Assembly (NCBI GenBank): GCA_003251635.1 | Contig: QKEW01000012.1 | Span: 53,333 to 117,332 of the forward strand | Source: a bacterium | Lineage (GTDB): Bacteria; Patescibacteriota; Minisyncoccia; Moranbacterales; GWC2-37-73 | DNA length: 64,000 nt | Direction of reading: 5' to 3' | In this document: piece after piece, positions 37,014 through 58,360 of the stretch | Position numbering within the stretch: the first letter of the stretch is position 1 | How the letters are laid out: each line of letters starts with the position of its first letter | Notes under the pieces: generated by a model | The model's input: only the letters and a program-made list of their open reading frames with translations | Told to the model about the DNA's origin: nothing | The model's database searches: none | Position numbers and translations under genes: made by a program

Positions 37014-38099
37014 TTAATCTAACTCTCGAAGTTGCTCGACCAGTTTTTTCTGCTGGCGAGAAAGTTTTCTGGGAACGTCCACCACGATTTTAACCAGATG
37101 GTCACCTCGCGAAGATCCCTGCAAAACTGGCACGCCTTTGCCTTTGATTCGGAAAGTTTCACCTGACTGAGTTCCCGACGGCACTTTCATGGTAACTTGA
37201 CCTTCGATTGTTTTGATTGGAATTTTGTCACCCAAAACTGCTTGAGCAAAAGAAACGTGTTGGGAAGAAAGGATATCATTGTTTTTTCGCTGAAATTCCC
37301 GATGCGGTCGCACATGCACATTCACATAGAGATTGCCATTGGGAGCACCTTTCTCTCCGGCCTCTCCGGCACCGCGAATTGAAATTGTTTGACCCGAATC
37401 GATTCCGGCTGGAATTTTGATATTTATTTTTTTCTCCTGTTTAATGCGACCGTCTCCTCCGCACTTGTGACATTTTTTGGAATAGGTCTTGCCTGATCCC
37501 TGACAGGTTGGACAAGTTGAAACCTGCGCAAATGATCCAAACATACTGCGCACCGTTTGTTGAACTTTGCCAGACCCCTTGCAGGTCAAACAGGTTTCTT
37601 CTTTGGCACCCGGTTCTCCTCCTGTTCCATGACAAACATCACATTCGGTTTTCAAATACAAATTTATATCCCGATCTGCACCATTGACCATTTCTTCAAA
37701 AGAAATCTCCACATCCACCTGCACATCGTTGCCTGGTTGTTTTTGACTGCGCGAGCGACCACCCCCAAAAATATCAGAGAAAATATCTCCAAAACCTTCG
37801 CCGAAATCTCCGGAAAAACCACCTTGAAAACCGGAAAAATCAAATCCGCCTTGAGAAGAAAAACCGCCAAAGCCACCCTGTCCGCCACTGCCAAAAGTTT
37901 GACCAAACTGATCATATTGAGCTCGTTTGGTTTTGTCAGAAAGAGTCTGATAGGCTTCGTTAATTTCTTTGAATTTTTTTTCATCCCCGCCAGCTTTGTC
38001 GGGATGATATTTGTGGGCCAGTTTTCGATAAGCTTTTTTGATCTCATCATCTGAAGCTCCCTTGGAAATGCCTAAAGTATCGTAAAAATCTTTTGCCAT
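37014..38099 (-). CDS. dnaJ: chaperone DnaJ (Hsp40)
   Basis: J-domain with [12 protein letters not shown], a Gly/Phe-rich linker, and four CxxCxGxG zinc-finger repeats. Confidence 0.92.
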
Positions 38100-38164: not shown

Positions 38165-38191
38165 TTAGCAATCCCCTCGGACGAGTGCTAA
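38165..38191. promoter_or_regulatory. CIRCE-like HrcA operator (one mismatch) upstream of dnaJ
   Basis: TTAGCAaTC-N9-GAGTGCTAA, versus the consensus TTAGCACTC-N9-GAGTGCTAA. Confidence 0.6.
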
Positions 38192-38206: not shown

Positions 38207-39181
38207 TTAAACGATTATTTCCGCCAAACGATCTTCCAATTTTACCCGCACAATGGCTGTTTTTTTCAAAATCCAAAAAACCATTGAAGCCAGATATAGC
38301 CAAAAAAAACGCAAAAATGGACCGAGCGAAAGCAGAGTCAAAAGCAAAATTAAGGCCAAGACAAATGAAAGCAGCTGGGGAGAATTTTCTTGTCCCCTCA
38401 CAACCGAAAATTTGCTCATCCTGGAATTTATTAAGGCCACAAAAACATCGTTTACCTTCTCGTCTCCCGCAATTTTGAAACCAGCCGTCTGAGAAAGTTG
38501 TTTCTTCCAATCATCAACAACGATCTGTCGCAATTCGCTCTCACTGACCGAAGCGCTGCTTGAAAGAATATCATTCATCTTATTGTCAGATTGCTTGGCG
38601 GAAATGACCTCATAGAGTTCGGCCAAAAAATCGTCCATGGAAATCTGATCACTCTTCATTTTGGAAAAATCGGGAGAGACCTTGGATAAACTCCAATCAA
38701 TAATTCCATTTGTAAGTTTATTAGAATCAAGTGACAAGTTTATTTCAGGTAAATTTCTGACCGTAAAATAATATTGACTGGTTACAATCAAAGAAAGAGC
38801 GACAATTATGTAAAAAATGCTTCGCTGAGAATTGCGGCGAAAACTTATTTTCAAACTGGAATCAAAATCTCCACAAGCAATTACCCAGCCCTTGAAAAGA
38901 AGCAGGACTCCAACCAAAACAAACAACAAATGGCCGGCCTTAAAAACAAAAATTAGACTCAAGGCCGTCACTCCAAAACAAACGGCCAGAATCATCAATC
39001 TTTGGCGCTCCAGAGCAAAAAACAAAACCAGACAAACAGCCAAAATGGAAAATATCAAAAAGGGCCACCAAAAATTACTAGCCGATTCTACCATTATTGC
39101 CCGATCGATTGACCACCAAGACAATAAAGCGCTTACCAAAATCACAACCATCAGGATTTTATTCAAATTCTTTTTTAACAT
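38207..39181 (-). CDS. hypothetical membrane protein (4 N-terminal + 2 C-terminal TM helices around a soluble domain)
   Basis: 324 aa with no recognisable family. It lies between dnaK and dnaJ on the same strand. Confidence 0.4.
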   Translation of the reverse strand: MLKKNLNKILMVVILVSALLSWWSIDRAIMVESASNFWWPFLIFSILAVCLVLFFALERQRLMILAVCFGVTALSLIFVFKAGHLLFVLVGVLLLFKGWVIACGDFDSSLKISFRRNSQRSIFYIIVALSLIVTSQYYFTVRNLPEINLSLDSNKLTNGIIDWSLSKVSPDFSKMKSDQISMDDFLAELYEVISAKQSDNKMNDILSSSASVSESELRQIVVDDWKKQLSQTAGFKIAGDEKVNDVFVALINSRMSKFSVVRGQENSPQLLSFVLALILLLTLLSLGPFLRFFWLYLASMVFWILKKTAIVRVKLEDRLAEIIV

Positions 39182-39300: not shown

Positions 39301-40176
39301 TCAATCGCCCGAGTCTTCACCACCCAAAACCAGTGGCTCAGACTCATCTTCATCAAAATCATATTCTTCCAAATCTTCTTCCTCGGGAAATAAAGCGAGA
39401 AACTGCTGAATTTCCACAGGGATTTCCGGGATGATAAACATCGGGAGGTAAGAGCAATAAGCCAACATTCCATCTATTGATTTTTTCACGGCCAAGGCTT
39501 GGTGATGAGTTCTGTTCGGATTATATATCTTATAAAGCTCAAAAACTTTTTCACATCCCAAGAAAAAAGCCAATAAACTTAATGTCTCATCATTAATGCT
39601 GAGTTTTTTAACCGGGTCAACACTTTCCGCACCATAAGGATCCTCGTCCAGAGGCACAACCCAGAGATAGCCGTTAGTGATTTTTTTATTCTTACAAGCT
39701 CGATAAATATCGCGCTTGTATTCGCTAACTGCATTGAATAATAAAGTTTGATATCCGGCCAAAATGTCCATATTGGCCGGATTAAAAACCCAAATATTTT
39801 CCAAATGGGTTCGCAAACCATTTTTGAGAAAATCCAAAAAGTCAGCTAGATAAAACTCCACTCTTCCGACATTTTCAGCGTTAACATCATCGCCGAAGTA
39901 AAAAGTTATATCGTTATAATCAGTATCAACAATCATCAGCTGCGCTAAATCGTCATCTAATGAAAAATTAAAATTAAGCTTGGAATTCCATTTATTACTA
40001 TTGCAAATTGCCACGCTCATGCCCGTCAATAGCCAACCCGGGATTTTTAAGTGTTTAATAACAACCAATGCTCTGTTACTTTCCCTGGCGTTAAAAATTT
40101 TTTTCAAGCCTTGATATCCAAGACACCACTTACCACCACCTGTTACCAAAGTCAAAAATAAGTTTTTCATCTTCAA
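39301..40176 (-). CDS. hypothetical protein with poly-acidic C-terminal tail
   Basis: 291 aa with no recognisable family. The C-terminus is EEEDLEEYDFDEDESEPLVLGGEDSGD. Same strand as dnaK, immediately downstream of it. Confidence 0.4.
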   Translation of the reverse strand: MKMKNLFLTLVTGGGKWCLGYQGLKKIFNARESNRALVVIKHLKIPGWLLTGMSVAICNSNKWNSKLNFNFSLDDDLAQLMIVDTDYNDITFYFGDDVNAENVGRVEFYLADFLDFLKNGLRTHLENIWVFNPANMDILAGYQTLLFNAVSEYKRDIYRACKNKKITNGYLWVVPLDEDPYGAESVDPVKKLSINDETLSLLAFFLGCEKVFELYKIYNPNRTHHQALAVKKSIDGMLAYCSYLPMFIIPEIPVEIQQFLALFPEEEDLEEYDFDEDESEPLVLGGEDSGD

Positions 40177-43769: not shown

Positions 43770-43801
43770 AAATTTAGTTCAATTTCATTATAATTCATCC
43801 A

Positions 43802-43828
43802 TTAGCACTCGTCAAGTGCGAGTGCTAA
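43802..43828. promoter_or_regulatory. CIRCE operator (perfect) upstream of hrcA-grpE-dnaK
   Basis: TTAGCACTC-GTCAAGTGC-GAGTGCTAA, 33 nt upstream of the hrcA start codon. Confidence 0.88.
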
Positions 43829-43844: not shown

Positions 43845-43884
43845 TGAAAAAACCGCCCTAGATTAAACTTCGATCTAGGGCGGC
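43845..43884 (-). terminator. rho-independent terminator ending the small-ORF cassette
   Basis: CCGCCCTAGAT-N9-ATCTAGGGCGG hairpin, followed on the minus strand by TTTTTT. Confidence 0.6.
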
Positions 43885-43909
43885 TTATAAAATATACAAT
43901 ACCCCTTAT

Positions 43910-44074
43910 CTATACAACTATGGTTTCATGTTCCAGAAAATGACAATTTGTGCATCCGTCACAATCTTCCGGATGCTTTTCCAAAACTTCCATTGCTAAC
44001 GACAGAGGCATTTCTGCCTCTAGTTGTTGACAATGTACCGTTTTCTCAACAACCCCGCCATCAACTACACACAT
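43910..44074 (-). CDS. small Cys/His-rich protein (54 aa), function unknown
   Basis: AAGGAG 8 nt upstream of ATG. Product MCVVDGGVVEKTVHCQQLEAEMPLSLAMEVLEKHPEDCDGCTNCHFLEHETIVV. It falls below the ORF-track size cutoff. Confidence 0.45.
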   Translation of the reverse strand: MCVVDGGVVEKTVHCQQLEAEMPLSLAMEVLEKHPEDCDGCTNCHFLEHETIVV

Positions 44075-44088
44075 CAGCACATCTCCTT

Positions 44089-44219
44089 TTATGTGAGACG
44101 CAAGTAGCCCCGGCAGTTAACACAATGCTTTGTGGTTCCGGTGCATTCCGTATTGCCAGAACCACCTACGCACGGGACAAGATTAGTGACCGCCTTCTTA
44201 AATTCTTTCCTTTTTGCCA
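44089..44219 (-). CDS. small Cys-rich protein (43 aa), function unknown
   Basis: GGAG 8 nt upstream of ATG. Product MAKRKEFKKAVTNLVPCVGGSGNTECTGTTKHCVNCRGYLRLT (C-x9-C ... C-x2-C). Its stop overlaps the RBS of the next small ORF. Confidence 0.45.
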
Positions 44220-44287
44220 TGTTCTTTTCTCCAATCTCTTGAGAGTTTAGAAAAATCGCCACAATATAAATGGCGGGCGAAAATATC

Positions 44288-44521
44288 TCAAAAAAAGTTT
44301 CTCACTTTCCTGTGGGAACAATTATTGCAACCATTGAGCTGAATTACTTTGTCATTTTTTGCAAGCGAGATCCACTTATCATATCTTCGCTTGCAAGTTG
44401 CATCGTTATATTTGACTTTTTCATCCAAATAACATTTTTTCTTTATTTGATTAGCTCCATGGGGTTTCTTGTTTTTTTTGAAATAGCTTGACATACCTGA
44501 TGCATCATCACCTCCACACAC
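44288..44521 (-). CDS. small Lys-rich, Cys-containing protein (68-77 aa), start uncertain
   Basis: ...MSSYFKKNKKPHGANQIKKKCYLDEKVKYNDATCKRRYDKWISLAKNDKVIQLNGCNNCSHRKVRNFF (C-x12-C ... C-x2-C, zinc-ribbon-like spacing). The ORF-track start is GTG at 44521; an ATG at 44494 is also possible. Confidence 0.3.
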   Translation of the reverse strand: MCGGDDASGMSSYFKKNKKPHGANQIKKKCYLDEKVKYNDATCKRRYDKWISLAKNDKVIQLNGCNNCSHRKVRNFF

Positions 44522-44635
44522 AAAAAAGGTTAAAAAGATTTATCAGAAAAACAAATAATGCCTTCCATATTCTAAATTTTTAAAGATCCAACCACTATCT
44601 TTAAAAAATAACTTTCAACTAAAATTTTTTCTTTT

Positions 44636-44881
44636 TTACTTTTTTGGTACCGGATCATAACCACCCTCATTCCAAGGATGACAGCGTAACACTCGCTTAC
44701 TGCCCAATCTTAAACCTTTCCAAACCCCAAACCGTTCCACTGCTTCAAAAGTGTATTGTGAACAGGTTGGATGAAAACGACAAACTCGCGTCGGCCAAAT
44801 TTTTGATAGCCAACCCGAGTCCAGAGAAAGGGTTTTTTGATAGAGCTTGATCAACAACAAAACAATCTTTCGTAACTTCAT
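44636..44881 (-). CDS. yidD: membrane protein insertion efficiency factor YidD
   Basis: [46 protein letters not shown] matches the YidD signature. Confidence 0.8.
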
Positions 44882-48450: not shown

Positions 48451-49515
48451 TTATTTATTTAATTGCTCGTCAATCAGAGCCTTGAAGTCCTCATAGGTAG
48501 TCAAACCACCCACAAATTCATCTCCCACAAAAGCTGCAGGGGTTCCGCTGATTCCAAAGTCTTGGGCCGCTTGAACACTAGCATCAATCTTGTCTTGATA
48601 TTTAGCTGAATCCAAACATTCATTAAATTGCGTTGCGTTTAAACCAAGTTGACGGGCATAGGCTTTAAAAATTTGAGTGTCCTTGCTTGCGCCCCAGTCA
48701 TCCTGCGAAGAGAAAAGCTTATTGGCATAGTCCAAGAATTTTCCTTGTTCGTTAGCACATTCGCTAGCTAGAGCAGCGCTATTGGCTTGCAAATGAAAAC
48801 TCAAAGGCATCTGCTTGTACACGAAATAAACCTTATCGCCGTATTCCTTTAAAATTGGTTCGATCACGGTTGTGTGCATTTTGCTGCAGTAAGGACATTG
48901 AAAATCAGAATATTGAATGATGGTTACTTTATCATCTGATTGCTCACCTATTTTAATGTCATCTTCATTGATTTGAGGAGCTTCTATGTATTTGCAAGAA
49001 GCAATTCCAATCGCTTCAGAACTTAGCAAATATTGATCATCTTTCTTTTTGAAAACACTTTGAGCCTGAGGAAAAATTACTGATTCTTCAACTTCTTTAG
49101 AGAAAACAAAGAATGGAACTGATTTTATTTCATACTTTTCCGCTAGCATTTTGCCTTCTTCAGAATTGATATCTATCTTGTTTACCGCTACGGTTGGCAA
49201 ATCAGTTTTCAAAGCCAAGATAGCCTGAGAAACATCACAACTCTCAGAAGAATCGTCAGTTAAAACTTCTACGTTAATCATCGGCTCATCATAGGCCACC
49301 CAAGTTTTATCGTCCAAAGTAAAAACATCCGCTCCGTTTAGAACTTTTTGAGAAAAACCTTCGCTACGGAACATCTGAGCCACATCCACAAAAAGACTAC
49401 CCACAAAAAGACCACCCAATAAAATTGAAAGTGAAACCAAGTTCTTAACCAAATTTTTATTCTCTTTCTTTGAATGCGATTTTTCCTCCTTTTTTTGTTT
49501 ATCCTGCGTTTCCAT
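48451..49515 (-). CDS. membrane-anchored DsbA-family thiol:disulfide oxidoreductase
   Basis: N-terminal TM helix and a thioredoxin-fold domain with the CPYC active site (FQCPYCSKMH). Confidence 0.7.
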   Translation of the reverse strand: METQDKQKKEEKSHSKKENKNLVKNLVSLSILLGGLFVGSLFVDVAQMFRSEGFSQKVLNGADVFTLDDKTWVAYDEPMINVEVLTDDSSESCDVSQAILALKTDLPTVAVNKIDINSEEGKMLAEKYEIKSVPFFVFSKEVEESVIFPQAQSVFKKKDDQYLLSSEAIGIASCKYIEAPQINEDDIKIGEQSDDKVTIIQYSDFQCPYCSKMHTTVIEPILKEYGDKVYFVYKQMPLSFHLQANSAALASECANEQGKFLDYANKLFSSQDDWGASKDTQIFKAYARQLGLNATQFNECLDSAKYQDKIDASVQAAQDFGISGTPAAFVGDEFVGGLTTYEDFKALIDEQLNK

Positions 49516-49557
49516 ATTTTTTATTATTAATAATTTCTAGTTAGCCTGAACTTTTCT

Positions 49558-49860
49558 TTATTCTTGAGCCTCTTCAACATTCTGCTCAGTTTCAGTTGTC
49601 TCTTGCTCCTCCATAGCCTCTTTTTGAGCCTGTTCTATCATATCAGCTTTCAATTGAGAAACATTATAATCATCAATTGCGGTCTTTACCTTGTAGTCAT
49701 TATAACCAATTGTAATTTTCTTTACAGCCTCACTTTTCAAAGTAATTCCCAACAAGATTCCCAACACAAAAAAAGAAATTAACTCGATTTTCAAGTCCCG
49801 TCTGGCTTTGCGAGCTTCCAAAACTTCGTCCGTCGAATTTTTTATGGCGTCCTTTTCCAT
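49558..49860 (-). CDS. small membrane protein with acidic C-terminus, hypothetical
   Basis: 100 aa, one TM helix. Confidence 0.3.
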   Translation of the reverse strand: MEKDAIKNSTDEVLEARKARRDLKIELISFFVLGILLGITLKSEAVKKITIGYNDYKVKTAIDDYNVSQLKADMIEQAQKEAMEEQETTETEQNVEEAQE

Positions 49861-49962
49861 ATTTATCGTTCTTTATTAATTAACAACGTGTTTAGTTTAA
49901 CACAATTCGAAAACCCCAACAATATTGACGCTTATCGGTTTTTCCAGCATAATATCGGAAAA

Positions 49963-51228
49963 TTATTCTTTCCTCAGCGCTTCCATCGGACTAAGTTGAG
50001 CCGCTTTTCGAGCCGGATAATAACCAAACAAAATCCCAATCATAACCGAAAAACTAACTGCTAAAACAACTGCTTCTTTGGTAACGGAAAAAATCAAATC
50101 GTAGCCCAAGCTTTCCAATAAGCTTGAGATAGCCAAGGAAACCACAAAACCCAAAATGATTCCAATTAAACCGCCCAACAAAGTCACAATCACTGCTTCC
50201 AATAAAAATTGAAACATGATGTCACTTCCCTTGGCACCAACCGCCTTGCGCAGTCCAATTTCAAAAGTTCTTTCAGTAACCGCCACATACATAACATTCA
50301 TAATTCCAACACCTCCCACTAATAAGGAAATCAGCGTTATAGACAAAAGCAAGGCTTGGATAGCTCCAAAAACATTGCCAATAATTTTTCGAGCCTCTTC
50401 AATTGAAGTGACGGAAAAATCATCTTTGTTTGGGTCATCGATATTATGCCTTCGTCGCATCAATTCAGTAATTTCAACTGAAGTAGCTTCTACCAAATCA
50501 GGATTTTTCAGTTTAACCGAAATAAACTTCACGTGGTCAACTCCCAAGATTTTTTTCTCCAGAGTTTGAACTGGAATATAGATTATTTCATCAAAATTAA
50601 AAAAGGAAACAGTACCACGAGGTTCCAGAATTCCAATTACTTTGTAATTTTGTCCTTTGATCTTAAGATTTTTTCCCAAAGCTTCTTCATTGCCAAAAAT
50701 TTTCTCCTCAATATCGCTGCCAATTACCGCCACCTGGGCCAATTCCCGATCATCGTTTTGGGAATAAAAAACCCCTTCTTTAAGTTTAATGTTTTCATCA
50801 ACCTCGGAAGCGGCCGGACCAGCCCCAAAAAGCAAAGCCCGCTTATTTTCACTGCCGTAGCTAACAACTTCCTGACCGATCGTTCCAGCATAATAACTTT
50901 CCACGTTAGAAATTTTTCCGATAGCCTCAGCATCTTTGATTTTCAAAGTCGTAATCTCCACTCCCATTGCTTGAGTGGTAGCGTTTTCAGTCGAAGTTTT
51001 ACTAACCGACGGAACTTTAACTTCAACTTGTATGATATCGGTTCCGAAACTTTCAACTTGCCCCATCACAAAACTTTCCAATCCGCTACCGAATGACATG
51101 ACCAAAATGATCGCCGTAGTCGCTATGATAACGCCGAATAAGGTTAAAAATGTCCGACCCCAATTGGAATTTAAATTTTGGAAGGCCAGCTTCAACGAAA
51201 CTATATTTTTTTGCCAAAGTTTTTTCAT
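49963..51228 (-). CDS. ABC transporter permease, FtsX/MacB-type
   Basis: N-terminal TM helix, large periplasmic domain, C-terminal FtsX 3-TM bundle. Confidence 0.8.
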   Translation of the reverse strand: MKKLWQKNIVSLKLAFQNLNSNWGRTFLTLFGVIIATTAIILVMSFGSGLESFVMGQVESFGTDIIQVEVKVPSVSKTSTENATTQAMGVEITTLKIKDAEAIGKISNVESYYAGTIGQEVVSYGSENKRALLFGAGPAASEVDENIKLKEGVFYSQNDDRELAQVAVIGSDIEEKIFGNEEALGKNLKIKGQNYKVIGILEPRGTVSFFNFDEIIYIPVQTLEKKILGVDHVKFISVKLKNPDLVEATSVEITELMRRRHNIDDPNKDDFSVTSIEEARKIIGNVFGAIQALLLSITLISLLVGGVGIMNVMYVAVTERTFEIGLRKAVGAKGSDIMFQFLLEAVIVTLLGGLIGIILGFVVSLAISSLLESLGYDLIFSVTKEAVVLAVSFSVMIGILFGYYPARKAAQLSPMEALRKE

Positions 51229-51241
51229 GCTAAGTAAATAT

Positions 51242-52483
51242 TTATTCGGATCTCAACGCTTCCATTGGAGAAATCTTAGCAGCTTTGAAAGCTGGATAAA
51301 TTCCGAAAATAATTCCAATTAAAATTGAAACTAGCGTTGCCAAAAAGATGGATAAAGGTGAAATAATAAAATCCCATTCATAGCCCAGTCTGGAAATTAT
51401 AACCGCCGCCAAAAAAGAAATGACGATTCCCAAAATAATTCCCACAATTCCTCCGATCACTGTCACAAAAATCGCCTCGGCTAAAAATTGAACTATGATG
51501 TGATAGTTGTGAGCCCCGACTGCTTTTCTAAGTCCAATCTCCTTAATTCTCTGATTAACTGAAATCAGCATGATATTCATAATCCCAACCCCACCAACTA
51601 TCAAAGAAATTGCCGCGATTGATACTAGAAAAAATTTCAACACATTGGTAACATTGGTCAGAACCGACGTAGCCTGAGCCACGCTTCTTACGGAAAAATC
51701 ATCTTCTTGATCAGTTTTTAAATTGTGCATCTCTCTCAAGGTGGCCTTGATGTCCACCATAGCTCTTTCCAAATTCTGGGTATTATTAATTTTTATTCTG
51801 GCAAAATTCAGATAATCAATTCCCAGCAAAATTTTCTGAGCTGTAAAAAGCGGAATATAAACAGCCTGATCACTATTGGAAAAAGCTACCGATCCTCTCT
51901 TTTTCAAAACTCCAATAACCGTAAAATTAGAATTACCCAGGGTTACAATTTTTCCCAAAGGATTTTGATTGGGAAAAATTTCCTGAGCCCGATCATTACC
52001 CAACACCATGACTCTGGCCAAATTTCTTTCCTCCTCTTGGGTAAAAAATCGACCTTCTTCCAACTCGACATTTTCCACATCAATAAATCCAGCCGTAACT
52101 CCTTGATAGCTAACACTACCCGAAAAACTTTCATACTTTAAAATCCCCACCCCACTCACGTAACCTGCCACCTCCTTTACGTTCGGAACATTTTTAGTTT
52201 TGGCAATGGCTTGCAGATCACGATATTTCAAGGTGGTGGTCACCACGCCCAAAAGCGAAGCTGGTGGACCTTTTTCATCGGCAGCTCCCGGCAAAACTCC
52301 AATCAAATCACTGCCAATTCCGCTAACCTGATCCAAAACCAACCGCTGAGCGCTTTCTCCGATTGACATGACGATTATGACAGCCGCTACTCCAATAATA
52401 ATTCCCAAGATAGTCAAAAAAGAACGCAGTTTGGCTGCCATTAAATTCTTGTAGGAAATTTTAATCGGAGCAATAACTTTCAT
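51242..52483 (-). CDS. ABC transporter permease, FtsX/MacB-type (paralog)
   Basis: Same architecture; paralogous to the gene at 49963-51228. Confidence 0.8.
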   Translation of the reverse strand: MKVIAPIKISYKNLMAAKLRSFLTILGIIIGVAAVIIVMSIGESAQRLVLDQVSGIGSDLIGVLPGAADEKGPPASLLGVVTTTLKYRDLQAIAKTKNVPNVKEVAGYVSGVGILKYESFSGSVSYQGVTAGFIDVENVELEEGRFFTQEEERNLARVMVLGNDRAQEIFPNQNPLGKIVTLGNSNFTVIGVLKKRGSVAFSNSDQAVYIPLFTAQKILLGIDYLNFARIKINNTQNLERAMVDIKATLREMHNLKTDQEDDFSVRSVAQATSVLTNVTNVLKFFLVSIAAISLIVGGVGIMNIMLISVNQRIKEIGLRKAVGAHNYHIIVQFLAEAIFVTVIGGIVGIILGIVISFLAAVIISRLGYEWDFIISPLSIFLATLVSILIGIIFGIYPAFKAAKISPMEALRSE

Positions 52484-52494
52484 GAAGATTCGGA

Positions 52495-53226
52495 TTATTT
52501 GAGTAAGCTTTCTTCACTTTTAGCGATCATGCGATCTTTTACTGCTTCATCTGACACAATCTTCCCGTCTTTCATGAGCAAAATTCGCTTGGCATGTTTG
52601 GCGGTGTAAGTTTCATGAGTAACCAAAATTATGGTTCGTCCTTGATTATTAAGATCCTGCAAAATCCTCATGATTTGAAGTCCGGATTTGGAATCCAAAT
52701 TACCAGTTGGTTCATCGGCGAAAATAATTTCCGGATCATTAACTAAGGCCCGAGCGATTGCCACCCGCTGCTTTTCTCCTCCGGATATTTGATTAGACAA
52801 ATAATCAATTCGGTGTTCCATATCGACAGAACGCAAAGCCTTTTGAATTTTTTGAGAATTATCCGAGATCATCTCGATATGATTTTCGTCATAGAGAAGA
52901 GGCAACTCCACGTTTTCATAAATTGTTGTGCGCGGCAACAGATTAAAAGATTGGAAAATAAATCCGATTTTTTGATTGCGAATCCGGGCCTTTTCATCAT
53001 CGGAAAATTTGTGCACTTCTTGGTTTTCAAAAAAATATTCTCCACTACTGGCATTCTCCAAAAAACCCAAGATTTGCATCAAAGTTGATTTGCCACTGCC
53101 TGACGGACCCATAATCGAAACAAAATCTCCTCGTTCAATAACAAAAGACGCATCTTTCAATGCGTGTGTTTTTATTTCCCCATCTCCATAAATCTTATTC
53201 AAATTGTGAACTTTTATCAGACTCAT
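52495..53226 (-). CDS. ABC transporter ATP-binding protein (MacB/LolD-like)
   Basis: [10 protein letters not shown] (Walker A), [15 protein letters not shown] (signature), [12 protein letters not shown] (Walker B). Confidence 0.9.
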
Positions 53227-53253
53227 CTCTTTAATCTTAACTTATTTTTAAAA

Positions 53254-54585
53254 TCAACTCTGAGTATCGGATGAAAAAGTTATGACCTCTTCGCCACCAC
53301 TAAGACCGGAAATGATTTCCACCATTCCCTCATCACCTTCAAGACCGGTTTCTACCCAGATCCGCTCAACCTCATTTTTAGGTTGCAAAACTTCCACGTA
53401 TTTTCTTTTTCCTTCTAATTTTATAGCCCTAGAAGGAACTTGAACTACGTTGTCTTTTTGAGCGGTCACAATGTCAACATTGACGCTCATACCCGGTTTC
53501 AATTTCGGTGAAACATCTTCTATTTTTAGCTTTACTCGATAGTAAACAACATCCTGAATAATAGTAGCGTCTGTGTCGATCTGCACAACCTCGGCCGAAA
53601 AAACATCCTCCAAATCCAGAGCATCAAAAGTAATTTGAGCTTTGTCACCCAAAGAAACCTTGACGATATCTGACTCAGGAATGTTTGATTCCAAAATAAA
53701 ATCATTAGCGATAACCTTGGTGAAAGATTCCTTGATCACGCCAGTCCCCAGTACTTCTCCCGTCTTGTTGTTGATTTTGGTAATCTTCCCATTGACCGGC
53801 GATTTTAAGGTGGCTTTAGCCAAATTTTCTTGAGCAATTTCATAGGCCGCCTTGGCGGATAAAACCGAAGCGTCATTAACGGTTTGAGTATATTTGGATT
53901 TGAGAGTTTTCAATTTTGCTTCAGCGCTGTTCAAAGCATTTTCTGCACTTGTCTTGGAAAGATCAGCCTGACTTTCAGCAACCTCTTTATTTTTCTGAGC
54001 ACTTTCGTAGGCATTTAAAGCGCTTTGCAAAGACAGATAGGCATATTTAGCTGTTGAACTGCCTTCCCCGCTGTCATCAACTATTTGATCATAATAATCT
54101 TGGGCTGCTTCATAGTAATCTTTAGCATTATCCTTAGCTGTCTCGGCCGCCGCCAAATTCTCTTCGTTAAGATCTTTGGTGTCATCCAAAAAATCTTCAG
54201 CATTTTCAACCGAAACCTCCATTTCTCGAATCGCATCATCATTGCCTCCAGATTTAGCTACCGCCGCATCCCAAGCAGCCTGAGCTTGAGTTAACTGAGA
54301 ATTTAAAATCGGATTATCAATCATAGCAATCGAATCACCGGCCGCCACCGTCTGACCTTCACGAACAAAAATCGTGCCGATGCGTCCACCAATTTCAAAA
54401 TTCAAAGTAATTTCCCGTTCATCCGTCAAATCTCCAGTGGAAGAAACAGTTTGTACCAAAGGGCCAACCTGAGCGGCTTCGGTCGTATAGGTCACGGCTG
54501 ATTTTTTTGGTCGGAAAATAAAAAACAAAATTAAAACCAGAGCAACTATGACTAAAATCCAAATGATCTTTTTCTTTTTTGACAT
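53254..54585 (-). CDS. HlyD/MacA-type periplasmic adaptor (membrane fusion protein)
   Basis: N-terminal TM helix, long coiled-coil, beta-barrel and lipoyl-like regions. It is the first gene of the efflux operon. Confidence 0.75.
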   Translation of the reverse strand: MSKKKKIIWILVIVALVLILFFIFRPKKSAVTYTTEAAQVGPLVQTVSSTGDLTDEREITLNFEIGGRIGTIFVREGQTVAAGDSIAMIDNPILNSQLTQAQAAWDAAVAKSGGNDDAIREMEVSVENAEDFLDDTKDLNEENLAAAETAKDNAKDYYEAAQDYYDQIVDDSGEGSSTAKYAYLSLQSALNAYESAQKNKEVAESQADLSKTSAENALNSAEAKLKTLKSKYTQTVNDASVLSAKAAYEIAQENLAKATLKSPVNGKITKINNKTGEVLGTGVIKESFTKVIANDFILESNIPESDIVKVSLGDKAQITFDALDLEDVFSAEVVQIDTDATIIQDVVYYRVKLKIEDVSPKLKPGMSVNVDIVTAQKDNVVQVPSRAIKLEGKRKYVEVLQPKNEVERIWVETGLEGDEGMVEIISGLSGGEEVITFSSDTQS

Positions 54586-58020: not shown

Positions 58021-58360
58021 CCATCAAGGCAAGCTATAAGCCGGATTCTGTCAGGGACAATCATTTATCTGGACCTATTGTTGCCAATAAGTTCGAGCGA
58101 CACAGACCGACGACTGGCGCCGGAATACGGTCTTGCATTCAGGCAAGGATTTAGCCGTTTCACCCCCTTGTTACCAAGGGACTTTCCCGCTTAAAAAGCG
58201 GGCTATTGATCTTGCGATCAAACACGTCTCTGCTCGCACCTCTAAGATTACTCTCGACGGGAGTTACCCGCTGCCCGCACCGATTTTTCAACCGATTGAA
58301 TGTCCGGACTTTCCTCTCTTGGTCCGAAAACCAAAGGTGATTGCCGACTTACCTTGATGG
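58021..58360 (-). ncRNA. rnpB: RNase P RNA (bacterial-type, about 340 nt)
   Basis: The minus strand contains GAGGAAAGUCCGGAC (P4 5' strand / CR-I) and ACAGAAUCCGGCUUAUAG (P4 3' strand / CR-IV), plus GGGGGUGAAACGGC. A P1 helix is formed by 5' CCAUCAAGGUAAG and 3' CUUGCCUUGAUGG. Region otherwise devoid of credible ORFs. Confidence 0.8.

Follow-up and report, generated by a model that had tools for sequence, protein, structure and literature searches.

Small cysteine-rich open reading frames between yidD and hrcA in a Moranbacterales genome: a possible local copy of a lineage-wide, hypervariable cassette

The region between yidD and hrcA of a Moranbacterales bacterium (GenBank assembly GCA_003251635.1, contig QKEW01000012.1) carries three small open reading frames (ORFs), here called A, B and C, whose predicted products are rich in cysteine. 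They lie in a stretch of 64,000 nucleotides (nt), referred to below as the window; coordinates are positions in it, and all cassette features are on its minus strand. We judge the chances about even that B and C, and less surely A, are real orphan genes that represent the local copy of a lineage-wide cassette of mini-proteins with four-cysteine (Cys4) scaffolds, fixed in position and hypervariable. In such a cassette only position, strand, size and cysteine pattern would persist, and the sequences would turn over fast. Targeted literature searching (Cys-rich small proteins in Patescibacteria; hrcA/CIRCE in candidate phyla) brought up no paper that describes a cassette of this kind after yidD.

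Along the minus strand the order is yidD, ORF A, ORF B, ORF C, a strong terminator, a perfect CIRCE element and hrcA-grpE-dnaK. The three ORFs, with their ribosome-binding sites (RBS) and the isoelectric points (pI) of their products, are as follows.

44288 to 44494, minus strand: ORF A, 68 amino acids (aa) from an ATG, or 77 aa from a GTG at 44521; pI 9.9
44089 to 44232, minus strand: ORF B with its RBS; GGAG 44232-44229, ATG 44220, TAA 44091-44089; 43 aa, pI 9.6
43910 to 44088, minus strand: ORF C with its RBS; AAGGAG 44088-44083, ATG 44074, TAG 43912-43910; 54 aa, pI 4.4

The cysteine-rich cassette noticed in a first-pass annotation of this DNA is confirmed as an observation, and the interpretation given with it is partly supported. 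The three minus-strand ORFs of 68, 43 and 54 codons are present, with cysteine counts now set at four, four and five: positions 21, 34, 56 and 59 in A (C-x12-C-x21-CxxC), 17, 26, 33 and 36 in B (C-x8-C-x6-C-x2-C), and 2, 15, 38, 41 and 44 in C, the last three forming CxxCxxC. Each product has a CxxC near its C terminus, and cysteine content is 5.9-9.3%; EFKKAVTNLVPCVGGSGNTECTGTTK is an example of a peptide predicted from B and C. The two Shine-Dalgarno sites, GGAG for B and AAGGAG for C, stand at exactly 8 nt from their ATG, as had been described. ORF C has the best codon log-odds of its six frames (+0.16 per codon) and is a called gene, yet a singleton among 15 billion proteins, and ORF B was never called as a gene by any gene caller in the database. 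ORF C also holds a perfect 7-bp hairpin with a GAAA loop. On the opposite strand a 100-aa ORF (43948-44250), whose composition had already appeared implausible, was rejected as a candidate, with its TTG start, lack of an RBS and codon log-odds of -0.13.

The argument that these ORFs belong to a wider class comes from related loci. For comparison, 35 loci were taken from the surroundings of close HrcA relatives (61-85% identity); all belong to assemblies of Moranbacteria/Parcubacteria type and are designated by L-numbers. The synteny yidD-gap-CIRCE-hrcA is kept in 20 of the 35, with a YidD of 55-73% aa identity adjoining the gap. The gap DNA of these 20 loci has no similarity to that of the window. 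An RBS-aware scan found that nearly every gap holds between one and four small ORFs, all on the hrcA strand and each with a strong RBS and 4-11 Cys, and an equivalent terminator stands just before CIRCE in nearly all relatives. The gaps of 16 distinct relatives (13.4 kb) were compared with their flanks for RBS-led ORFs that do not exceed 150 aa and have four or more Cys: there are 22 in the gaps on the hrcA strand and none on the opposite strand, and three in 100.9 kb of flanks, both strands counted.

The products of these ORFs share a pattern. CxxC occurs in 19 of 23 independent products versus 6.6 +/- 2.1 expected from composition (as many in 0 of 5000 shuffles), and in 15 of those 19 it falls within the last 40% of the protein. 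Cysteine makes up 7.6% of the cassette products versus 0.66% of the proteins of the window's long genes. One layout, C-x(8-17)-C-x(6-21)-CxxC-x(4-9)-end, recurs, and a second is C...C...CxxCxxC. The 8-6-2 cysteine spacing of ORF B is identical to that of a 74-aa ORF of L002 and L004 that is under selection (see below), and the C..C..CxxCxxC layout of ORF C resembles a 65-aa ORF of L028, both likenesses being at the level of pattern only. When all products were anchored on CxxC, no further conserved residue emerged. What marks the class is a place between yidD and CIRCE/hrcA on the same strand, a strong RBS, a length of 40-150 aa, four or more Cys including a CxxC that is usually C-terminal, and a closing terminator before CIRCE. 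B and C have all of these features, and A has all except the RBS. The first-pass annotation had proposed to check whether homologues keep the cysteine positions and the gene order. No homologue conserves the cysteine positions, but the gene order is kept and the same kind of gene stands at the same place. Since relatives keep this kind of gene with unrelated sequence, the absence of homologues, formally a refutation of the earlier proposal, is misleading.

Where they can be tested, the cassette ORFs of relatives are, judging from their substitution patterns, real genes. In the 74-aa ORF of L002/L004 the ratio of non-synonymous to synonymous changes (pN/pS) is 0.20 in frame versus 0.82 and 1.11 off frame (p 0.0015). 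In a 96/97-aa ORF of L005/L036 it is 0.33 (p 3e-4), and all 10 Cys are kept while 24 other residues have changed. A 92/102-aa pair of L002/L004 retains 42% identity (E 1e-19) with its Cys mostly aligned. The same comparisons indicate that turnover is modular, ORFs apparently being replaced one at a time. The DNA of L005 and L036 is 85% identical until the first ORF ends at its stop; the second ORFs differ. Between L002 and L004 one ORF has 42% aa identity, and in the next nine in ten amino acids are identical; this next ORF, the terminator and CIRCE (L002 3619-3937 versus L004 3559-3875) are far more alike than the ORF just upstream. Such a sharp border suggests recombination or very unequal constraint.

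A cysteine scaffold kept amid free drift, the excess of CxxC and the lack of any signal peptide or hydrophobic segment in the products of A, B and C are most simply accounted for by a Cys4 metal centre. Each product would fold round a single tetrahedral Cys4 site, binding Zn(II), or Fe or an Fe-S centre, and made of two upstream Cys and the C-terminal CxxC or CxxCxxC knuckle; one such site per product would explain why the cysteine scaffold alone is retained. Without export signals or hydrophobic segments, the products are probably cytoplasmic. ORF B is basic and ORF C acidic, and similar adjacent basic/acidic pairs occur in L016, L001 and L013, which makes a B-C complex possible. That the three ORFs are translated, that their products bind metal and that B pairs with C are inferences.

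Brz of Halobacterium salinarum belongs to the nearest known kind of protein, a loose class of small zinc-finger mini-proteins described in haloarchaea and in some bacteria (PMC2253796). Like the cassette products, these are of 40-100 aa, mostly hypothetical and unrelated outside their cysteine patterns; they often lie in 'intergenic' space adjoining a regulated gene, and binding of one metal ion through four Cys/His has been proposed for them (PMC2253796). That class is defined by two Cys/His pairs, with 2-3 residues between partners, placed 7-40 residues apart, of which at least one is CPxCG, CPxCx or CxxCG, in proteins of <100 aa (PMC2253796). A few relatives' ORFs fit the CPxCG motif, e.g. 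a 64-aa ORF of L011 with CSIYC...CPVCG. The products of A, B and C are of suitable length, but each has a single CxxC or CxxCxxC that is not CPxCG-like (CNNCS in A, CVNCR in B, CDGCT/CTNCH in C) and two isolated Cys, with no second pair at 7-40 residues. Neither has the Brz class been described as a position-fixed hypervariable cassette (PMC2253796).

Metallothioneins (SmtA/BmtA) and single-cluster ferredoxins are likewise small metal proteins in which the sequence drifts and the Cys are kept. The CxxCxxC of ORF C and several relatives recalls them, as do some relatives with 10-15% Cys. However, there is no match to Pfam Metallothio_Pro, and the cysteine content of A, B and C is below that of metallothioneins. 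The CxxCxxC of ORF C lacks the distal Cys-Pro of 4Fe-4S ferredoxins and has no Fer4 match, the sole trace being Fer4_4 at E 0.55 in L015 (ten relatives' products, E <= 1). The first-pass annotation saw no likeness between the products and ribosomal zinc-ribbon proteins, and indeed A, B and C match no Pfam or NCBIfam profile for L31, L32, L33, L36, S14 or S18.

Expression of the cassette may be read from three further features.

44263 to 44291, minus strand: promoter-like site TTGAGA-17-TATATT (10/12 matches), candidate for a B-C bicistron; overlaps the ORF A stop and a weak hairpin
44055 to 44116, minus strand: B/C junction hairpin, formed by pairing of the ORF B 3' end with the ORF C 5' end, AUG of C included; AAGGAG in the loop
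43847 to 43886, minus strand: intrinsic terminator closing the cassette; 14-bp G+C-rich stem 43886-43873/43863-43850, 9-nt loop, T6

The cassette would be transcribed by read-through from yidD and/or from its own sigma-70-type promoter, TTGAGA-17-TATATT, and transcription would end at the strong terminator, whose 14-bp stem and T6 (free energy (dG) -22.5, z -4.9) bear out the earlier statement that a terminator closes the unit. No terminator was called between yidD and ORF A (44522-44635), in an AT-rich spacer of 114 nt. The hairpin after ORF A (44275-44257) is weak (dG -9, z -1.8) and overlaps the promoter-like site. For this reason the single three-ORF unit described earlier, although terminator-closed and apart from CIRCE/hrcA, is better regarded as yidD-(A) plus a B-C bicistron. 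The stop of ORF B, reported as overlapping the RBS of ORF C, in fact abuts it, with 14 nt from stop to ATG. The 101-nt stretch at this junction has a dG of -29.7 (z -1.8; 10 of 200 shuffles fold as well), and its hairpin, by burying the AUG of ORF C, fits translational coupling. B (pI 9.6) and C (pI 4.4) would then be translated as a coupled basic and acidic pair, ribosomes completing B opening the hairpin that hides the C start.

The cassette is its own unit, closed by a terminator and outside HrcA/CIRCE control, since the strong terminator would stop transcription before CIRCE. The window has only two CIRCE elements: one at 43802-43828 stands before hrcA and beyond the cassette terminator, the other before dnaJ at 38165-38191.

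Several observations weigh against the reading of A, B and C as genes of a lineage-wide cassette. No sequence homologue of any of them was found, even where the HrcA of relatives is 80-85% identical. In a word-indexed search of 5.8 billion proteins ORF C had only its self-match, ORF B no candidate and ORF A nothing beyond its own Joint Genome Institute (JGI) call, a 77-aa GTG-start gene (P0014) as which alone it is present in the database; an exhaustive phmmer search of 1.84 billion cluster representatives with ORF C returned itself and a repeat artefact (P0002). Pfam, NCBIfam, PHROGs and PADLOC gave nothing significant for A, B, C and up to ten relatives' ORFs. On A, B and C there was no Pfam family even at E <= 10, and the best NCBIfam result (0.032) was an unrelated S5 model at 13.7 bits against a cut-off of 252 bits. 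A sequence search of the PDB found no match for the ORFs, and neither did IMG/VR, GenBank phage or PLSDB, ORF B being left out of the IMG/VR search as too short. Comparisons of A, B and C with relatives' ORFs by hhalign and BLASTP were not significant, so that their membership of the class is a matter of position and pattern only, and the measures of selection are those of relatives' ORFs. Some relatives hold a lipoprotein, or nothing, in the gap. The codon scores of A (log-odds -0.07 per codon) and B look non-coding, and in synonymous codon use all three fall below the 5th percentile of host genes. ORF A is without a usable RBS, the GGAGG at 44515-44511 sitting 16 nt upstream of its ATG. AlphaFold2 single-sequence models, the kind of prediction suggested earlier in order to look for a zinc-ribbon or treble-clef fold, had a predicted local distance difference test (pLDDT) score of 48 for C (poor) and 68.5 for B (moderate), and when the B model was compared with the PDB by Foldseek, nothing came up with E < 2. 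The B-C RNA is unusually structured, with z -3.6 to -4.4 for the 377-nt transcript (minus strand, 43886-44262). An inverted repeat, GGTGGTTCTGG / CCGGAACCAC, encodes the Gly/Thr-rich middle of ORF B ('GGSG...TGTT'), so RNA-level constraint could shape this ORF.

Much of this would also be expected if the window's ORFs were non-functional, even with a functional cassette in other genomes: they could be decaying remains, or ORFs that arose by chance or as proto-genes in a spacer that evolves fast. The orphan state of all three, the codon scores of A and B with their atypical synonymous codon use, the missing gene call for B, and the misplaced RBS of A with a run of eight A that splits two frames are all compatible with it, and random ORFs are by nature richer in Cys than real proteins. 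Chance, however, rarely produces such an arrangement. RBS-led ORFs with 40 or more codons and four or more Cys were counted on one strand of dinucleotide shuffles of the 866-bp gap: two adjacent ones appeared in just 1 of 5000 shuffles and one in 66 of 5000. Only three such ORFs exist in the 64-kb window, both strands counted, and two of them are B and C. The joint chance of CxxC in A, B and C given composition is ~0.014, and the RBS spacing of exactly 8 nt is common to B and C. The same architecture is strand-specific in relatives (22 versus 0) and under selection there. Nor is the atypical codon use peculiar to the window: cassette ORFs as a class have a mean synonymous codon score of -0.05 versus +0.16 for host genes, and the relatives' ORFs under selection are marked by it as well. 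Because codon use is odd across the whole class, the poor scores of A, B and C fit the class and are no argument against coding. We consider the non-functional account of the window's ORFs rather unlikely, though possible, above all for ORF A.

ORF A is the weakest of the three gene candidates and doubtful as a gene as drawn. Two features overlap its start.

44443 to 44508, minus strand: 21-codon ORF MMHQVCQAISKKTRNPMELIK in another frame, with its ATG at 44508; overlaps the ORF A start
44472 to 44479, minus strand: A8 run; in the 21-codon ORF's frame it reads as the canonical -1 slippery heptamer A_AAA_AAA

In the RBS-aware scan it is the 21-codon ORF that the GGAGG at 44515-44511 serves, 5 nt from its second ATG. 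Judging from the reading frames, the 21-codon ORF would become fused to ORF A by a -1 frameshift or if the run changed by one A. The A8 run (44472-44508 region) could mean programmed frameshifting, phase variation, gene decay or assembly error.

The structured B-C transcript invites another account, in which the selected feature would be the RNA itself, either as a structured RNA or as a cysteine-sensing attenuator, with ribosomes pausing at the Cys codons of ORF B and so controlling ORF C. Cys codon 36 of ORF B marks the start of the junction hairpin, in which the AUG of C is buried; an inverted repeat encodes part of ORF B; and there is a precedent in mycobacteria, where very short, leaderless polycysteine ORFs with tandem Cys codons control cysteine-metabolism operons (bioRxiv 10.1101/834739). 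These attenuators are, like the cassette ORFs, unannotated short Cys-rich ORFs upstream of genes, and their mRNA duplex, which hides the next start and responds to ribosomes on the short ORF, resembles the B/C hairpin (bioRxiv 10.1101/834739). The ORFs of the window, in contrast, are led by an RBS in B and C and extend over 43-68 codons, with their Cys codons dispersed as CxxC and none in tandem. In such a scheme the gene under control would be C, itself rich in Cys, while hrcA lies beyond a terminator and has a promoter of its own. Of 19 ordinary coding windows (mean z -0.9, sd 1.6), 2 also reach low values, of z -3.4 or below. No nucleotide conservation extends across relatives. Junction hairpins were considered as a shared attenuator and rejected, being inconsistent in relatives. 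Rfam, at gathering and permissive thresholds, in the window and nine relatives, gave no match in the region or the related loci; the region is most likely coding and is no known non-coding RNA, the alternative raised earlier. An RNA as the selected feature appears to us very improbable.

The products could also be precursors of modified or exported peptides (lanthipeptide, ranthipeptide, sactipeptide or disulfide-rich bacteriocin), with the maturase or exporter encoded elsewhere. Precursors of Cys-rich ribosomally synthesized and post-translationally modified peptides (RiPPs), among them SCIFF/ranthipeptides, sactipeptides and lanthipeptides, are indeed small, Cys-rich and highly strain-variable, as the cassette products are, and the C-terminal half of ORF B is Ser/Thr/Cys-rich after a Gly-Gly. 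A MacB-type exporter, an HlyD-like partner and a DsbA-like protein are encoded 4.5-10 kb away. Against this, Pfam scans of all ORFs of at least 200 aa across the 64 kb revealed no radical SAM, LanM/B/C, YcaO or C39-peptidase transporter, in line with the earlier remark that no modification enzyme is adjacent. No NCBIfam or Pfam precursor model was matched, the cassette ORFs share no conserved leader, and many relatives' products are, at 90-130 aa and basic, too long and too basic for RiPP precursors. A RiPP-precursor role for A, B and C (lanthipeptide, ranthipeptide/SCIFF, sactipeptide or thiopeptide) is therefore unlikely, and we give it little credence. The first-pass annotation had held a metal-binding or regulatory small-protein role to be as likely as a modified peptide. 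The metal-binding role stands, but not the equal odds: with no linked maturase, a metal-binding small protein is the more likely of the two. A regulatory role found no support.

Modular replacement suggests yet another possibility, namely that the gap is a slot for mobile or conflict genes (toxin/antitoxin-like pairs, anti-phage or anti-host factors) swapped by recombination as in integrons or defence islands. Consistent with this are the single replacement of ORFs with sharp borders, the foreign-looking codon use across the class, the adjacent basic/acidic pairs in the window, L016, L001 and L013, and the extreme turnover between genomes. Integron arrays, too, consist of same-strand small ORFs, often of unknown function, exchanged module by module between related genomes, although the cassette differs from them in the strong RBSs of its own ORFs and in its fixed chromosomal site after yidD. 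No integrase or transposase turned up in Pfam scans of window ORFs of at least 200 aa. Neither flanking repeats nor repeated inverted-repeat, attC-like sites were found, with no dedicated attC model run, and there was no PADLOC, PHROGs, phage, plasmid or IMG/VR match. Moreover, the genomes that share families F1 and F2/F3 are related to a matching degree, as expected of vertical descent coupled with fast divergence. We think a mobile or conflict slot improbable, about as much so as RiPP precursors.

A bolder form of the cassette reading would make the yidD-hrcA gap of Moranbacteria a dedicated diversification locus, a slot fixed in the chromosome in which the Cys scaffold of the mini-proteins is selected while loops and whole ORF modules are replaced fast, for use in conflict with hosts, phages or competitors, B-C being one allele. 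We regard it as unlikely, if marginally less so than the two preceding possibilities. If true, it would be a bacterial counterpart, in ultra-small, host-dependent bacteria, of hypervariable Cys-framework peptide families.

The flanks of the cassette include the following.

44636 to 44881, minus strand: yidD (81 aa), Pfam PF01809, E 2.7e-27; directly upstream of the cassette
43787 to 43828, minus strand: hrcA control region, with the perfect CIRCE at 43802-43828 and an embedded sigma-70-type promoter, TTGACG-17-TATAAT; outside the cassette

The identities of YidD, HrcA, GrpE and DnaK are borne out by Pfam. The spacer between yidD and ORF A carries at 44577-44607 a perfect 11-bp inverted repeat, TTTTTAAAGAT-N9-ATCTTTAAAAA, possibly an operator or an AT-rich hairpin. 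The second CIRCE (38165-38191) has one mismatch and lies upstream of dnaJ (37014-38099, minus strand), and between dnaK and dnaJ are two ORFs with no Pfam match, 39301-40176 (291 aa) and 38207-39181 (324 aa). On the other side of the cassette, a minus-strand cluster at 48451-54585 encodes an HlyD-like adaptor, an ABC ATPase and two MacB/FtsX permeases. After these come an ORF of 100 aa without a Pfam match (49558-49860) and a DsbA-like thioredoxin-fold protein (48451-49515). The sole Rfam match in the window is a bacterial class A RNase P RNA (58021-58356, minus strand, 122 bits, E 6e-37). Among the related loci, a lipoprotein-like gene of ~210 aa is present in the gap of L007 (3051-3689), L030 (2163-2786) and L031 (284-646), where it replaces or accompanies the Cys-rich ORFs; it is 37% identical between L007 and L030 and has no Pfam match. 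The gaps of L001 (3025-4000) and L023 (2410-3000) have 50% G+C versus 30-45% in other gaps. The L023 gap contains no RBS-led ORF, and no Rfam family was found in either.

Small proteins are under-annotated, above all in uncultivated bacteria of the candidate phyla, as the uncalled ORF B and the singletons A and C among 15 billion proteins illustrate. For such genes a search for homologues may fail, as it does for A, B and C, where a comparison of position and cysteine pattern recovers a strong, strand-specific signal. Should the ORFs prove untranslated, the locus would serve as a warning that RBS-led, Cys-patterned ORFs can persist at one place. If the cassette reading is confirmed, the locus would contribute a set of candidate small metalloproteins from a lineage whose genomes are very reduced, and would offer a defined place to study the origin, divergence and replacement of orphan Cys-scaffold mini-proteins.

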